Of a stretch of 64,000 nt of DNA, positions 13,849-63,553 are shown piece by piece. The position numbers were made by a program, and so were the translations under genes. Each line of letters starts with the position of its first letter. The stretch's first letter is position 1. The DNA is taken from UHGV virus genome UHGV-1519562, one strand, 5' to 3'. Source of the DNA: a virus. The notes beneath the pieces are model-generated. The model was not told the origin of the DNA and searched no databases. It saw nothing but the letters and a program-made list of their open reading frames with translations.

Positions 13849-14279
13849 TTTTAAATTTCTGCGAAATTTAAAATCAAAAAGAAAATTCGTTTTTTAAATT
13901 TAAAATTGACTTAACTCGTTGTTCAAATTTAAAAATGGTTTAGAGAGGGAAATGTCCAGGCCAAATGGTTTTTAATAACAAATATAATTTTTTTCCCGAA
14001 AACTACCCCGGAGTACGCCAAACCATTAAACTATCTTTCATTGGTAAATATCCATTGACCCCACAAAGGCCCCATCAAACAGCATCTTTTGTAAACAACC
14101 ATTCATTAATCAAAAGAGAAATGGTCTTGTCAATAGGCAAATTAAACAAAATTATTTTTCAGCAAAACGCATAAAGAAGAACTCTTAATTTCTTTTTCTT
14201 TTGTTTAATGCGTCAATAGACAAAAGACTATCTCAATGGTATAATAAATACAGAAATTAAGGAAAGGGGTCAATGACCT

Positions 14280-14627
14280 ATGAAAAAGTTCTTCTCTATC
14301 ATCGCTGTTCTGGCAATCGCTATCTCTGCTCTCACTACTTCTGCTTGCGCTCTCAACACTCCTGCTGAAAATGCCAGATACTGCGCAACAAACAGCATCC
14401 ACTATGGTATGAATACTGTTCGTCTGGTTCGCGCCACTGTTACTGCAACTCATGATGATGGATGTGTGACATTGAAAGACATGCGTGATGGCAACCTGTA
14501 CGCCATTGATGATGATGGCCTTGTGAAAGGTGAGGACGTTCTCATTGCTATTGACGACAATGCTACACCAGGTTTTGTCTATGATGACATGATTCTTGGC
14601 TTCTGGAATGGTTCTGCTCTTAAATGA
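14280..14627 (+). CDS. secreted protein / lipoprotein (hypothetical)
   Basis: N-terminal signal peptide with TTSAC lipobox-like cysteine; GGGG RBS; higher-GC codon usage than neighbours. Confidence 0.6.
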   Translation: MKKFFSIIAVLAIAISALTTSACALNTPAENARYCATNSIHYGMNTVRLVRATVTATHDDGCVTLKDMRDGNLYAIDDDGLVKGEDVLIAIDDNATPGFVYDDMILGFWNGSALK

Positions 14628-14677
14628 GCAGAACCATTTTCTTTTTTTATTTTATAAATAAATAAATGAAAAAGGTA

Positions 14678-14706
14678 TTGACATTCTGGTTGAAGTATGG
14701 TATACT
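14678..14706 (+). promoter_or_regulatory. sigma-70-type promoter (TTGACA N17 TATACT)
   Basis: TTGACA at 14678-14683, 17-nt spacer, TATACT at 14701-14706, followed by AAGGAGG and ATG 14734. Confidence 0.6.
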
Positions 14707-14733
14707 ATAAATAACAAAAGGAGGAAAGATCAA

Positions 14734-14937
14734 ATGAAAAAGACTTTTGAGTTCTATGCTTGCTCACCTGTTAAGACATGGCGGAACAACTACCAGGGAG
14801 AAAGTTGGCAGTGGGCTAAAGTTCAATGGTTTCGCTTCCCTTCTGGTCTGCGCAAGTGTTTAGTCTTTCCTGATGGTCAGGCAATCAAGATTGAACTTTG
14901 TAAGGTTAAAAACAAAAGAGAGGTTAAGAAAGTATGA
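14734..14937 (+). CDS. hypothetical protein
   Basis: 67-aa ORF with AAGGAGG RBS. Confidence 0.55.
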   Translation: MKKTFEFYACSPVKTWRNNYQGESWQWAKVQWFRFPSGLRKCLVFPDGQAIKIELCKVKNKREVKKV

Positions 14938-15164
14938 AAGAGTTGTACATGATGTATAATAAACGCTATGCAACAGGTATAAGTTTTTATACAAATTATG
15001 AAACTGCTTTGTTAGCAAGATACATTGCTTGTATAAAGATATCTAAACATGAAAAAGACAATGTAATGACAGAGTTTAGCACAAAAGAAGTAAGACAAAA
15101 ATATTGTAAAGATTGGTTTAACATTCTTAATATTAAACAGTTGATGTTGGTAGGAAGGAGATGA
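14934..15164 (+). CDS. hypothetical protein
   Basis: 76-aa ORF overlapping previous stop (ATGA). Confidence 0.5.
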   Translation: MKELYMMYNKRYATGISFYTNYETALLARYIACIKISKHEKDNVMTEFSTKEVRQKYCKDWFNILNIKQLMLVGRR

Positions 15165-15331
15165 AAAACTTCATCTCTTTCCTTTTGTTTAACATACTTG
15201 TTATAAACGAATGTCTTCGTTTTACAAGGCAACTTTCCGAATCAGTATACCACAAAGTCTGCTCAAAATCAATAGTCAAAATAGCTAAATTTAGAGGGAG
15301 AATTGGGATCCCGAATTGTGCAGTATGCCTA

Positions 15332-15360
15332 TTGACCTATTGCGGCAAGTGTGTTATTAT
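15332..15360 (+). promoter_or_regulatory. sigma-70-type promoter (TTGACC N17 TATTAT, extended -10)
   Basis: TTGACC 15332-15337, TG at 15352-15353, TATTAT 15355-15360; drives the gene at 15391. Confidence 0.55.
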
Positions 15361-15390
15361 ATAATTACAAAAGGAAAGGGGATAAAACAA

Positions 15391-15576
15391 ATGAAGAACA
15401 TCAAGAAGATCATTGGTGTCAAGATGGACAAAGCTAACAAGGCGATCCTTGACAAGTGGAAGGAATGGATCAAAGAAGAGGGCCGCGATGAAACCAGTAA
15501 GAATGACTTCGCTAACTATTACGCCAACTCTTATGAAGAGTATCAGCAGATTTGGGAAGTGGTTGAATGTTTGTAA
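15391..15576 (+). CDS. hypothetical protein
   Basis: ATG 15391 after AAAGGAAAGGGG; track ORF started further upstream. Confidence 0.5.
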   Translation: MKNIKKIIGVKMDKANKAILDKWKEWIKEEGRDETSKNDFANYYANSYEEYQQIWEVVECL

Positions 15577-15583
15577 AAAAGTC

Positions 15584-61420: not shown

Positions 61421-61635
61421 AAATTGTAATTGATAAAAAAGATTTTATGGAATATATTCGTGCTATGGTAGATAAGGATTTTGACAATTTTATGTTTGCA
61501 AATCCTTACGCGACAGAAGAAGATTATATTAATTTATATTATTCTTTTGATACAATTCATAATTTAGATGATATTTGTGAAGAAGAATATTGTAGAAGAA
61601 TTATTAATGGTGAAATAGAAGAAATTGAAGATTGA
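61417..61635 (+). CDS. hypothetical acidic protein
   Basis: 72-aa ORF, TTG start overlapping previous stop (TTGA), GGAGG 8 nt upstream. Confidence 0.4.
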   Translation: MKIVIDKKDFMEYIRAMVDKDFDNFMFANPYATEEDYINLYYSFDTIHNLDDICEEEYCRRIINGEIEEIED

Positions 61636-61735
61636 AAGAATTAAGGGCAAAGATTAAGATCTTTTGCCCTTAATTTATTTTTTTAAAAATTTATATTATA
61701 ATATATATAGAAAGTTAAGAAAGGAATTGATATTT

Positions 61736-61903
61736 ATGAATAAGGGTAAAGTTTATTGTTTTACTGACCTTCATGGCGATTCAAATTTGTTTAAGCAAAT
61801 TAAAAATTTCATTCAAGCAGAAGATAAAGTATTCGTGTTGGGTGATGTAATTGACAGAGGGACAGAAGGTTGTCAAAGCCTTTCTCTACACGAAAATATT
61901 TAA
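61736..61903 (+). pseudogene. truncated metallophosphoesterase (N-terminal fragment only)
   Basis: 56-aa product with TDLHGD and GDVIDRG motifs, then stop; downstream frame lacks the expected GNH motif. Confidence 0.4.
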
Positions 61904-62065
61904 CAGACAATAATATACGTATTATTTTTACAAATTATGTAGAAATGTTAAAATATAAAATTTGGAAAAAGACAGAAATTAAAAAAATAAATACAGAAAA
62001 AGAAAGAAAAGAACTTAAAGAATATTTTGAAATTGTAAAAAAACAAATTGAGGAGTTTGATAAAA

Positions 62066-62341
62066 ATGTCTAAAGACCCTAGAAAATATGAAATGCACGA
62101 TTTTTATTGTATGAATTGCGGAAAGAAGTCAATGTCAATTCCTCGATTAAGAGGACGTTTTAGAGAAGTTGGGCATAAGAAAGTTATGTATTGCCCTCAT
62201 TGTAAAGAAACTGTTAATATGGTAGAATGTAGAAACGATGAAGAAGCATATAATTTTAAACTAGATTTTGAAGAAGGTCTTTTTAAAGAAGAAGCACAAA
62301 ATAGTATTTCTTATGTAAAGGAGTTTGGTATTTATGATTAA
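62066..62341 (+). CDS. zinc-ribbon protein (hypothetical)
   Basis: CMNCG...CPHC pair; ATG 62066 after GAGGAG. Confidence 0.5.
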   Translation: MSKDPRKYEMHDFYCMNCGKKSMSIPRLRGRFREVGHKKVMYCPHCKETVNMVECRNDEEAYNFKLDFEEGLFKEEAQNSISYVKEFGIYD

Positions 62342-62837
62342 TTTGCATATTCTTTGTGGTATTCCTGCTTCCGGCAAATCTACTTGGGCAAAACAACAGA
62401 ATGGTAAAATTATTTCAAGAGATGAAATCCGTAAGAATTATGTAGGCGAAAATCCTGGAAAAAATTATTTTAGTAAAGAAAAACAAGTATATAAAGAAAT
62501 GATTACAAATATTAAAATTGCAATCAAAGAAAATATAAAAAATATTTATATAGATGCAACTCATATTGATGTTTCTTCAAGAGCTAAACTTTTAAACAAT
62601 TTTTTTAATCTAAAAGATAAGAATAATATTAATCTTACTTTTGATTATTTTCCTATTCTTTTAGATGTTGCTTTAAAAAGAAATTCTGAAAGAGAAGGTT
62701 TTGCTAAAGTCCCAGAAGAAGCAATAAAAAATTTTTATTTTAAATCTTCTATTCCTTCTAAGGATGAGATGAATAAATATCTTGATTGGGGTTTTCATAA
62801 TGTGAATACTATTTTGCATTATACTGAGGAGGTGTAA
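62325..62837 (+). CDS. polynucleotide kinase-like P-loop kinase
   Basis: Walker A GIPASGKST at the N-terminus; 170 aa; immediately followed by a phosphoesterase gene (Pnkp-like kinase plus phosphatase arrangement). Confidence 0.6.
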   Translation: MVFMINLHILCGIPASGKSTWAKQQNGKIISRDEIRKNYVGENPGKNYFSKEKQVYKEMITNIKIAIKENIKNIYIDATHIDVSSRAKLLNNFFNLKDKNNINLTFDYFPILLDVALKRNSEREGFAKVPEEAIKNFYFKSSIPSKDEMNKYLDWGFHNVNTILHYTEEV

Positions 62838-62839
62838 TA

Positions 62840-63385
62840 ATGGTTTGGTTTACCAGTGATCTTCATCTAGGCCATAATAAGCCCTTTCTTTATGAACCAA
62901 GAGGGTTTAAGAATATTCAAGAACATGATAACGCAATTATTGAAAATTGGAATAAAATTATTCGTCCTAATGATAAAATTTATGTGCTTGGCGATTTAAT
63001 GCTAAATGATAATGAAGCAGGAATTGAAAAAATTAAACAGTTAAAAGGACAAATTTATGTAGTTAGAGGAAACCATGATAGTGAAGTTCGTGTAAATTTA
63101 TATAATAATTGTAACAATATTATTAAAGTAACTGAAGGTCAATTTCTAAGATATGGTAAATATCATTTTTATTTAAGCCATTATCCTACACTTTGTAGTA
63201 ATTTTGATAATGAGAAACCTCTTAAAGCAAGAATGATTAGTATGTGCGGACACTCTCATAGTCAGGACGCTTTTGCGGATTGGGATAAAGGTCTTATTTA
63301 TCATGTAGAATTGGATGCTCATAATAATTTTCCTGTTTCTATTGATTCAATTATTAAGGATATTAAAAACAAAATTAAACAATAA
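62840..63385 (+). CDS. calcineurin-like metallophosphoesterase (candidate RNA 2',3'-phosphatase)
   Basis: SDLHLGH, GDLM, GNHD, GHSH motifs. Confidence 0.65.
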   Translation: MVWFTSDLHLGHNKPFLYEPRGFKNIQEHDNAIIENWNKIIRPNDKIYVLGDLMLNDNEAGIEKIKQLKGQIYVVRGNHDSEVRVNLYNNCNNIIKVTEGQFLRYGKYHFYLSHYPTLCSNFDNEKPLKARMISMCGHSHSQDAFADWDKGLIYHVELDAHNNFPVSIDSIIKDIKNKIKQ

Positions 63386-63420
63386 ATTAAAGACCCTAGA
63401 GTGCTTTTACTCTAGGGTCT

Positions 63421-63500
63421 TCGTGCATATTCGTGGCGGCCCGTGTCGCCGAATTTTCGCGCCTCTAGCAATTTTTTACGCAAATACCAAGAATTTTATT
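63421..63500 (+). other. GC-rich conserved element (family copy 5)
   Basis: GGCGGCCCGTGTCGCCGAATTTTCGCGCCTCTAGCAATTTTTTACGCAAATACC after a terminator hairpin. Confidence 0.45.
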
Positions 63501-63553
63501 TTTCTCAGAATTTATGATATAATTATAATATAAAATAAGATAGGAGAATTTTA

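Follow-up and report, generated by a model that had tools for sequence, protein, structure and literature searches.

The 64,000-nucleotide stretch of the virus genome UHGV-1519562 studied here (the window) carries two families of promoters, class I and class II, which occupy different parts of the sequence: class I ranges from 14.2 to 25.9 kb and class II from 25.4 to 61.7 kb. By their -35/17 bp/-10 geometry both families are classed as sigma-70/sigma-A-type promoters, and it is probable that both are read by the host RNA polymerase with its primary sigma factor (sigma-A/sigma-70), each of them being fused to a short standard 5' untranslated region. The window clearly belongs to a large, tailed and uncultured gut phage.

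Geometry of the two promoter families and of their leader

If up to one mismatch is allowed, the window contains 28 copies of TTGACA-N17-TATAAT, where 1.49 are expected; none of 100 shuffled sequences reaches 28. Fourteen perfect (12/12) matches are located within 10-27 kb, nearly all of them with TG at -15/-14, and five matches with one mismatch within 14.2-25.9 kb. The class II motif TATAATATATATAGAAA, allowing up to two mismatches, is found 19 times against 0.17 expected. Class I comprises about 22 sites in total, of which three are weaker variants, and class II comprises 20, in agreement with the preliminary description of this DNA, where about 20 copies of TTGACA-N17-(TG)TATAAT had been reported at 14-25 kb and about 20 copies of an A/T-rich block from about 25.4 kb onward. 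Its observation that the second block also precedes tRNA genes is likewise borne out, at the tRNA-Leu genes starting at 42514 and 52167.

The partition is reproduced by position weight matrices trained on promoters of related phages only, the window and its close relative being left out. Of the two, the class I matrix gives the better score at 21 sites (10.8-25.9 kb) and the class II matrix at 19 sites (25.5-61.7 kb) plus a hybrid at 17057; the scan of shuffled sequence gave no hits. All promoter sites but three are on the coding strand, and in both classes the start codon mostly lies 24-37 nt beyond the end of the -10 box, typically about 32 nt.

Class II had been described as devoid of a -35 element. 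This does not hold, since TTGAAA, TTGATT or TTTATT sits exactly 17 bp before the -10 box. TTGAAA is present at nine window sites, and the others carry mainly TTGATT, TTGAAT, TTGACC, TTGACT or TTTATT. Among 197 unique class II-type copies from relatives, the hexamer is TTGATT (45%), TTTATT (12%), TTGACT (12%), TTGACA (10%) or TTGAAA (10%), and TTGA is strongly conserved at exactly this spacing. The -10 box is a perfect TATAAT in 20/20 window copies, and the -35 match is typically 4-5/6, weaker than in class I. Thus, a -35-like hexamer at 17±1 bp from TATAAT, the mark of a sigma-70/sigma-A-type promoter, is found in both classes.

What is peculiar to class II is the sequence between and beyond these boxes. 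The spacer contains 0-1 G/C in 78% of the 197 copies, with the consensus TTTTTAAAAAAATAT, and the -10 box is directly followed by an invariant ATATATAG. TG at -15/-14 is present in 34% of class II copies vs 83% of class I. Class I is heterogeneous: one sub-type shows an A-tract (AAAAAAGGnC) just 5' of TTGACA, and another, called Ib, carries the upstream element TTTGTGCAATTTGCCTATTGACA, of which there are eight copies against 0.57 expected, all in 14.1-25.9 kb. Three class I members, two of them on the minus strand, precede G+C-rich hairpin RNAs instead of open reading frames (ORFs). Hybrids also exist, for instance relatives' class II-type copies that combine a perfect TTGACA with a G+C-containing spacer. 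Since 10% of the relatives' class II copies have TTGACA, the two classes grade into each other.

Class II promoters are not placed before structural genes, and the leftward packaging/portal operon has none. No convincing third, 'late' motif was found 5' of the leftward genes of the window or in the intergenic regions of the structural module of Enterococcus phage VRE9_4; a candidate, CCAAGAG, was rejected because it is common everywhere.

Downstream of the -10 box, two leader modules can be distinguished, AGAAAGTT and AAGAAAGGAATTGAT. The full leader, AGAAA(N)TTAAGRRR, is present in 16 copies. Each of them follows TATAAT at exactly 7 nt, and none stands at an internal gene. The preliminary description assigned this leader to both classes, and in part this stands: a promoter-coupled leader design is found in both, but the full form occurs at 12 class II sites and only at four class I sites (14240, 18007, 20109 and 23950). 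In the remaining class I promoters, what is shared is limited to the spacing and a Shine-Dalgarno region rich in purines. The 5' part, A(T/C)AGAAA(G)TT, is linked to promoters; it is largely kept before a tRNA-Leu gene (42482: ATATAAGATTAAC), where the Shine-Dalgarno part is missing, and the related sequence AAAGTTAA is located before a tRNA gene in VRE9_4.

The 3' part of the leader, AAGAAAGGAAUUGAU or AAGAAAGAGGUUGAU, is able to pair with 12-13 nt of the 3' tail of the 16S rRNA, and duplexes of 12-13 bp with this tail are obtained for AGAAAGGAAUUGAU and AGAAAGAGGUUGAU. The tail considered, GAUCACCUCCUUUCU, is the general Firmicute sequence and may differ from that of the host. Pairing is longer at promoter-proximal genes than at internal genes (10.5 bp vs 8.6 bp, p = 5e-4). 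By this complementarity the 3' half of the leader is an extended Shine-Dalgarno sequence, and what had been called a conserved 5' leader element is largely explained as a start region plus this extended ribosome-binding site.

In the mechanism that we propose, transcription would start at an A or G located 7-8 nt after the -10 box, and the initial transcribed stretch would be the purine-rich AGAAA(G)TT. Both classes would produce RNAs starting with AGAAA(G)UUAAGAAAGG..., in which AAGAAAGGAATTGAT would act as the extended Shine-Dalgarno sequence, with the ribosome about 10 nt from the messenger RNA (mRNA) 5' end and about 32 nt between the -10 box and the start codon. We infer that the leader may have an effect on mRNA stability or translation.

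Conservation, timing and alternative explanations

The class II cassette is widespread among related phages. About 50 IMG/VR contigs (94-198 kb) contain the exact 28-mer TATAATATATATAGAAANTTAAGRAAGG, several times each and in 78 stretches altogether, at loci that encode homologues of window proteins with only 30-70% identity. That the 28-mer remains exact while the proteins diverge to this extent indicates that the cassette is under strong constraint. These relatives also possess dense class I arrays of the same sub-types. When 185,579 species genomes were searched, the 28-mer was absent from isolate bacterial genomes and appeared in 11 stretches only, all in contigs of 13-180 kb (most of 120-180 kb) from metagenome-assembled genomes (MAGs). 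The taxa of these contigs are inconsistent (Oscillospiraceae, Erysipelotrichaceae, 'Mollicutes', Eubacterium, Lachnospiraceae), and they are probably misbinned phage genomes. Because the 28-mer is found only in phage-sized MAG contigs, the motif appears to be phage-specific and not borrowed from a host genome; the idea that class II mimics a host promoter was rejected on these grounds. BLAST of the consensus class II cassette against phage records detected only a weak, generic promoter/ribosome-binding-site likeness in Staphylococcus, Lactococcus and Enterococcus phages.

The nearest cultured relatives are the Enterococcus phages VRE9_1-4, EF1, EF5 and H1 (about 134-142 kb), with 37-38% identity in a sigma-like protein and about 31% in the portal protein. 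These phages and the window have the same three-part promoter layout and some identical leaders, such as ATAGAAAGTTAAGAAAGGAATG. In VRE9_4 (134 kb), whose sigma-like gene is 38% identical and which shares synteny with the window, a scan of the complete genome located class I promoters in an array at 117-127 kb. Replication, nucleotide-metabolism and tRNA genes at 53-115 kb are preceded by class II-like promoters, about 35 in all, and no credible sigma-A-type promoter was found in the 50-kb structural module of this phage. The VRE9_4 version of class II consists of TTGAWW, an A/T-rich 17-bp spacer and TGnTATAAT-TAATTATAAAGTTAAATAAGGAGG, TG being usually present, unlike in the window. Also unlike the window, the early block of VRE9_4 is not G+C-enriched.

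The genes behind the two families differ. In its 11.7 kb the class I block holds about 22 promoters and about 35 ORFs, which encode 36-231 aa and have almost no Pfam or other family matches; it shows the layout of a host-takeover region: small genes, many short units, and strong promoters and ribosome-binding sites. Class II genes encode an RNA ligase, a kinase-like P-loop protein, several metallophosphatases, a radical-SAM enzyme, YqeY, a DUF2828/DUF7788 protein and tRNAs. The G+C content at third codon positions (GC3) is 0.41 in the class I block vs 0.20 in the class II genes and likewise in the leftward ones; it rises abruptly at 14.2 kb and decays over 25.5-30 kb. This difference is possibly due to early translation without phage tRNAs or to a foreign origin of the block. 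Of 13 codons cognate to the phage tRNAs, nine are relatively commoner in later genes (23.2% vs 26.4% of codons, p = 8e-4), a modest effect that would suit a translation of early genes before the phage tRNAs build up.

The preliminary description suggested temporally separated transcription programmes. This reading of the sequence is plausible, because gene content differs between the two sets, GC3 shifts from 0.41 to 0.20 and VRE9_4 has the same layout. The class I block would be an immediate-early, 'host-takeover-like' region, in which about 22 copies of an A-tract or TTTGTGCA-type element, TTGACA, a 17-bp spacer with G and C, TGn and TATAAT would drive about 35 small ORFs and at least three hairpin RNAs. 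Class II would be a family-specific cassette with a weakened -35 at 17 bp, an A/T-only spacer, a perfect TATAAT and the invariant ATATATAG; its programme, most likely delayed-early or middle and dependent on the same holoenzyme, would drive RNA-repair, phosphoesterase, radical-SAM and tRNA genes.

Several points weigh against this picture. Start sites, timing and sigma-A dependence are what we infer from the sequence, and the 16S pairing of the leader rests on the general Firmicute tail, from which that of the host may differ. The edge of the GC3 domain is not exactly at the boundary between promoter classes, since the decay extends over 25.5-30 kb, and the tRNA-codon match is only modest. The conservation of the class II spacer TTTTTAAAAAAATAT and discriminator ATATATAG goes well beyond the known contact needs of sigma-A, which leaves room for an extra factor. 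Finally, the 58 sigma-A promoters of Kayvirus are of varied quality, yet all are 'early' and there is no middle class (PMC7698491), and therefore two sequence flavours need not mean two timings.

The last point leads to the alternative of a single early sigma-A regulon without any difference in timing, in which the two classes would be flavours that result from base composition, strength tuning, common descent or gene conversion. We regard it as unlikely, although several observations suit it: the -35/17/-10 geometry and the -10-to-ATG distance are the same in both classes, hybrids and a continuum connect them, and the spacer of the consensus promoter at 10766, which lies in an A/T-rich region, is itself A/T-rich. 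Moreover, the spacer consensus depends on the lineage (ATTTAAAAAATAAATGA in the window, TTTTTTATAAAAAATAT in relatives), as expected from concerted evolution. However, the near absence of G/C from the spacer (0-1 in 78% of the 197 copies) goes far beyond what composition explains, and there are position-specific preferences for A versus T. The invariant ATATATAG and the 28-mer are kept across phages with 30-70% protein identity, the sharp spatial partition is repeated in VRE9_4 with its non-G+C-rich early block, and the GC3 break divides the two gene sets.

A further alternative is that class II needs an early phage specificity factor reading the spacer and the discriminator, much as MotA/AsiA act at T4 middle promoters or p4 at the phi29 A3 promoter. 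One candidate transcription factor is the product of the sigma-like ORF 9572-10618 (minus strand, 348 aa; PHROG 5767 'sigma factor', E = 9e-41). This protein has no Pfam domain but a C-terminal CxxC...CxxC zinc ribbon, and with more than 6,600 homologues at 68-77% identity it is among the most conserved of the family. Its gene, the first of the packaging/structural operon, is preceded in the window and in relatives by its own near-consensus promoter, and in VRE9_4 it co-occurs with class II-like promoters. Another candidate regulator is a small DNA-binding protein of the AbrB/MraZ/MazE-type fold encoded by ORF 25715-25915 (plus strand, 66 aa; Pfam MraZ 24.2 bits with a cut-off of 23; MazE_antitoxin E = 0.004), the second gene behind the first class II promoter and exactly at the class I/II boundary. 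An unrecognised binder of sigma region 4 could also be considered. Apart from these genes, a factor would suit the conservation of class II from -35 to +12, which exceeds ordinary sigma-A requirements, its weak -35 and the presence of TG at -15/-14 in only 34% of copies. On the other side, the -10 is a perfect sigma-A TATAAT with TTGA at the canonical 17 bp, and the sigma-like gene heads a packaging/structural operon without sigma-A promoters of its own, so that a late role is at least as likely. In our opinion the need for such a factor is improbable. We are similarly doubtful about a bolder version, in which class II would be a 'middle' promoter that stays silent until the host sigma-A polymerase has been retargeted by an early phage protein, the AGAAAGUUAAG 5' end marking phage messages for preferential translation or protection. 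A dedicated middle promoter, if real, would account for the constancy of the A/T spacer and of the ATATATAG discriminator, and a retargeted sigma-A would represent an undescribed transcription switch common to a large clade of uncultured 100-200 kb gut/rumen phages, whose layout is shared by the cultivable VRE9 and EF1.

That class II promoters serve an RNA polymerase encoded by the phage, with a T7-like long and near-invariant motif ending in TATAG at the predicted start, can hardly be believed, since no such gene was found in the 64-kb window (of a genome of about 138 kb) and none is annotated in the complete VRE9_4 genome, and since the canonical TTGA-17-TATAAT is present and hybrids with TTGACA and TG occur.

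The promoters are also duplicated and combined with other elements. The preliminary description mentioned two near-identical cassettes, and in fact the identity between 16059-16125 and 23811-23877 is 87% over 67 nt, rising to 95% over 38 nt. Tandem pairs are found at 23842/23927, the first of them without a gene, and at 51715/51800. A hairpin of -8 kcal/mol or lower ends just 5' of the promoter in 50% of class II and 53% of class I copies vs 28-30% in shuffles, clear terminator-promoter fusions being those at 25451, 28635, 56202 and 61674. Of the promoter shuffling that had been proposed from these data, the near-identical pair, the orphan cassette and the hybrids speak in favour, but indels and replacements relative to the single close relative (about 95% nucleotide identity) are located at gene boundaries and none at promoter cassettes; a recombination role of the cassettes is thus weakly supported. 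That the repeats are mainly recombination cassettes of the kind known in T4-like phages, or selfish repeats with a merely secondary promoter look, is very improbable in spite of the hairpin composites and of the orphan, tandem and near-identical copies, because strand, position and spacing to start codons and tRNAs are those of working promoters.

Individual promoter sites and their surroundings

The class I block opens with a promoter with full leader at 14217-14279 (+), which leads to ORF 14280 (TAGACA-N17-TGGTATAAT, leader ACAGAAATTAAGGAAAGGGG). It is followed on the same strand by a class I promoter with an upstream A-tract (14678-14733, to ORF 14734; TTGACA-N17-TGGTATACT), by a weaker Ib promoter in which the element ATTGTGCAGTATGCCTA precedes TTGACC-N17-TGTTATTAT (15332-15390, to ORF 15391) and by a 12/12 match with TG (15584-15642, to ORF 15643). 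The Ib promoter at 16090-16149 (+; TTGACA-N17-TGTTATTAT), directed to ORF 16150, belongs to the near-identical pair. The hybrid promoter lies within this block at 17034-17092 (+), before ORF 17093; it combines TTGAAT, an A/T spacer and TGTTATAAT, and the class II matrix scores it at 25.8 vs 18.7 for class I.

Farther to the right, 12/12 promoters on the plus strand are found at 17446-17507 (to ORF 17508; leader ATAGAAACAAAGGAAAGAGGTTGATA), at 17984-18045 (to ORF 18046; full leader, ACAGAAATTAAGAAAGAGG) and at 18750-18862 (to ORF 18863), the latter with a structured leader of 84 nt. An Ib-type promoter with TTGATT and an A/T spacer, assigned to the repeat families D2 and D10, is present at 19835-19894 (+, to ORF 19895). 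Further 12/12 copies on the plus strand are those at 20086-20146 (to ORF 20147; full leader, ACAGAAATTAAGAAAGAGGTTGA), 20296-20348 (to ORF 20349), 20751-20810 (to ORF 20811), 21467-21520 (to ORF 21521), which stands right after a terminator hairpin of -17.4 kcal/mol, and 22113-22199 (to ORF 22200). A weaker Ib-type site occupies 21916-21943 (+; TTGCAA-N16-TGATATAAT). The second member of the near-identical pair is an orphan Ib cassette at 23842-23870 (+), which shows a Shine-Dalgarno-like sequence and no start codon and is in tandem with the 12/12 promoter with full leader at 23927-23987 (+, to ORF 23988; ACAGAAATTAAGGAAAGAGGTTGATA). The last class I promoter, at 25912-25940 (+; TTGACA-N17-TGGTATACT), is followed by a candidate structured RNA. 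This G+C-rich stretch of about 150 nt (25947-26095, +) has no ORF and ends in a T-run; its first 50 nt fold at -22.6 kcal/mol (z = -4.25), and it has no Rfam match.

Three Ib promoters, all of them 12/12 matches, lead to hairpin RNAs and not to ORFs. They are located at 16831-16905 (+), where GCGGCGGCGCGC...GCGCGCC on the 3' side folds at -18.3 kcal/mol, at 19700-19776 (-), with a hairpin of -18 kcal/mol and an end at the bidirectional terminator 19643-19679, and at 21780-21857 (-), ending at the terminator 21719-21743. The corresponding RNA loci are 16860-16905 (+), 19747-19700 (-) and 21828-21780 (-), and counterparts exist at four loci of relatives and in VRE9_4 at about 118910. All of them consist of a very strong promoter, mostly Ib with TTTGTGCA, and then an 8-12-bp G+C-rich hairpin without ORF. 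The RNAs often oppose the flow of early genes and finish at a bidirectional terminator; the hairpin sequences vary between phages and the arrangement is constant. Fold z-scores range from +0.4 to -5.3, 11/12 being negative. No Rfam family was found, either with gathering thresholds or with E values up to 1, and these hairpins are considered a candidate small-RNA family.

Two promoters lie outside the range of the preliminary description. The consensus promoter at 10766-10843 (+), a 12/12 match with TG and an A/T-rich spacer, leads to a Clp-protease/cell-wall-hydrolase operon, and the leftward operon with the sigma-like ORF, the packaging genes and the portal gene is preceded by TTGACT-N18-TATAAT at 10653-10682 (-).

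The first class II cassette, at 25451-25511 (+), is built on the T-tract of a terminator (TTGTTT-N17-TATAATATATATAGAAATTAAGGAAAGGAG) and is directed to ORF 25512 and to the AbrB/MraZ-like ORF 25715. The next one, at 26195-26223 (+), has no ORF and points into gene 26294-26926 (-), the only leftward gene of the rightward block. Because this gene is faced by the rightward promoters 25912 and 26195, convergent or antisense transcription is implied. A 13-bp inverted repeat, AACTTGACTTTT...AAAAGTCAAGTT (within 26095-26205), overlaps the -35 element of promoter 26195 and may act as an operator. The region 26927-27512 is a non-coding A/T-rich stretch of about 590 bp with several inverted repeats and two hairpins.

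All remaining class II sites are also on the plus strand. Cassettes are found at 27513-27578 (to ORF 27579; TTGAAA-N17-TATAATATATATAGAAA), at 28635-28694 (to ORF 28695), on a terminator T-tract with an upstream hairpin of -15.7 kcal/mol and TTTATT at -35, at 30971-31034 (to the phosphoesterase ORF 31035), at 31777-31840 (to ORF 31841) and, with TTGACC and TG, at 34895-34956 (to ORF 34957). The site at 37932-38044 has a longer leader before ORF 38045. It is followed by the cassettes 40028-40086, before the small ORF 40087, and 40821-40884, before ORF 40885, and by 41194-41222, whose leader is devoid of the Shine-Dalgarno sequence and for which the next ORF starts at 41484. The promoter at 42459-42513 (TTGACT-N17-TGTTATAAT) leads to the tRNA-Leu(UAG) gene at 42514, and the cassette 42722-42776 heads the operon that contains the tRNA cluster 42992-44942.

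Beyond this cluster, a cassette after a terminator (49411-49472) leads to ORF 49473 and the radical-SAM gene, a cassette without ORF (51715-51743) is in tandem with that at 51800-51859 (to ORF 51860), and a class II-like site with a 16-bp spacer (52051-52078) leads to the tRNA cluster 52167-53479. The last three are the cassettes 56202-56262 and 61674-61735, both on terminator T-tracts, and 59151-59229, which leads to ORF 59230 and the RNA ligase gene. Adjoining the second tRNA cluster, 53535-63385 encodes the DUF2828/DUF7788 protein (PHROG label 'RNA-binding protein'), a weak RlaP-like hit, three metallophosphatases, the RNA ligase, YqeY and an AAA_33 kinase-like protein. This set looks like an RNA-repair set and may counter tRNA-cleaving host defences.

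With respect to the genome as a whole, no close match was detected when segments of 12 kb and 15 kb were compared by megablast with 50,697 deposited phage records. The IMG/VR relative of about 95% identity is contig 3300045988_145614 (IMGVR_UViG_3300045988_145614), and from its length of 137,669 bp a genome of about 138 kb is deduced. The portal protein (3387-5015, -) is 53% identical to a protein of a human faecal contig, 40% to that of phage phAss-1, the nearest named relative by portal, and about 31% to those of the Enterococcus phages of about 140 kb. Genes of 1-10.6 kb, namely the sigma-like ORF, packaging genes and portal, are leftward, and those of 10.7-64 kb are rightward with the sole exception of 26294-26926. 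The G+C content is 38-40% in the early block vs 27-31% elsewhere. Sixteen tRNA genes are located at 42.2-44.9 kb and 52.2-53.5 kb. At 44158-44230, ARAGORN predicts a tRNA with a four-base anticodon (tgaa) and without an assigned amino acid, and the same stretch reaches 51.4 bits in Rfam as an ordinary tRNA.

Relatives of the phAss-1 group have TAG recoded (PMC10607447). No suppressor tRNA with a CTA anticodon was found in the window, and the long ORFs are uninterrupted. The first 50 kb of phAss-1 contain no promoter arrays of these kinds and the annotation is uninformative; promoters are not discussed in the phAss-1 paper, and a literature search with the motif strings gave nothing relevant.

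Two other features of the window deserve mention. The segment 6915-8113, of about 1.2 kb, contains the HNH endonuclease ORF 7140-7988 (-; phrog_59, E = 2e-70) and is missing from the relative of about 95% identity. It interrupts a gene whose parts (8096-8377 and 5435-6892) both match the first gene of VRE9_4, of 591 aa, and which probably encodes the large terminase. The segment looks like a mobile intron with a homing endonuclease; Rfam reported no group I intron in it. ORF 55113-56174 encodes a subtilase with a C-terminal S-layer-homology domain, which hints at a host whose cell wall anchors such domains.

Comparison with known phage systems

A regulatory map is thus available for a large and almost unstudied clade of 100-200 kb gut/rumen Firmicute phages, including the phAss-1/Enterococcus EF1 group. 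The signature of 28-45 nt detects members of the clade, marks transcription units and reveals phage sequences that were wrongly binned into bacterial MAGs. From the class I block the probable host-takeover genes and several small RNAs can be picked out. As units of about 70 nt that combine a terminator, a promoter and a ribosome-binding site, the cassettes could serve as compact expression parts in low-G+C Firmicutes. As biology, this is a further example of a strategy well known in phages, and its interest would rise only if class II needs a phage factor.

The early promoters of Kayvirus vB_SauM-515A1, TTGACW-17-TRTGN-TATANT (PMC7698491), resemble those of the window in the -35 TTGACW, the 17-bp spacer, TRTGN and TATANT, in the presence of dozens of copies, many of them just after terminators, and in serving most non-structural genes. 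The second Kayvirus class (TGTTATATTA), which lacks a -35, precedes structural genes and depends on a phage sigma factor, is not the counterpart of class II, since class II keeps its -35 and precedes non-structural genes. No '-10-only' class like this one or like that of T4 (TATAAATA) was found in the window, class II keeping TTGA at -35.

SPO1's host-takeover module is a block of about 12 kb with small early genes in many short operons and with strong sigma-A promoters and ribosome-binding sites (PMC6873191). The class I block resembles this module in layout, and no protein homology to the SPO1 takeover genes was seen. The second class of the window keeps TATAAT, unlike the middle and late motifs of SPO1. 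Those genes of SPO1 are read by phage sigma factors, with quite different motifs. T4 middle promoters (a MotA box plus a sigma-70 -10, acting with MotA/AsiA) and the phi29 A3 late promoter (activated by p4, with a poor -35) keep the host -10, have an altered -35 and are switched on after the early genes. Class II differs from them in retaining TTGA at -35, and no MotA, AsiA or p4 homologue was identified.

In Bacillus, mRNAs are stabilised by 5'-proximal elements of the Shine-Dalgarno type, such as STAB-SD and the polypurine leader of SP82. The leader of the window is similarly purine-rich, complementary to the 16S rRNA and within about 10 nt of the predicted 5' end; it differs in that it also serves as the predicted ribosome-binding site.

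The promoter early stem-loops (PeSLs) of T4-like phages are composite terminator/early-promoter cassettes located between the small genes of a variable region (PMC2839356, PMC4122927). About half of the window cassettes are likewise placed directly on the T-tract of a hairpin, and orphan and duplicated cassettes are present. The role of PeSLs in indels was shown by breakpoints between close relatives, whereas the single close pair of the window has no breakpoints at cassettes. Taken together, the architecture is familiar from Kayvirus, SPO1 and T4/T5, and the additions are the clade-wide class II cassette and a shared leader that is largely explicable.

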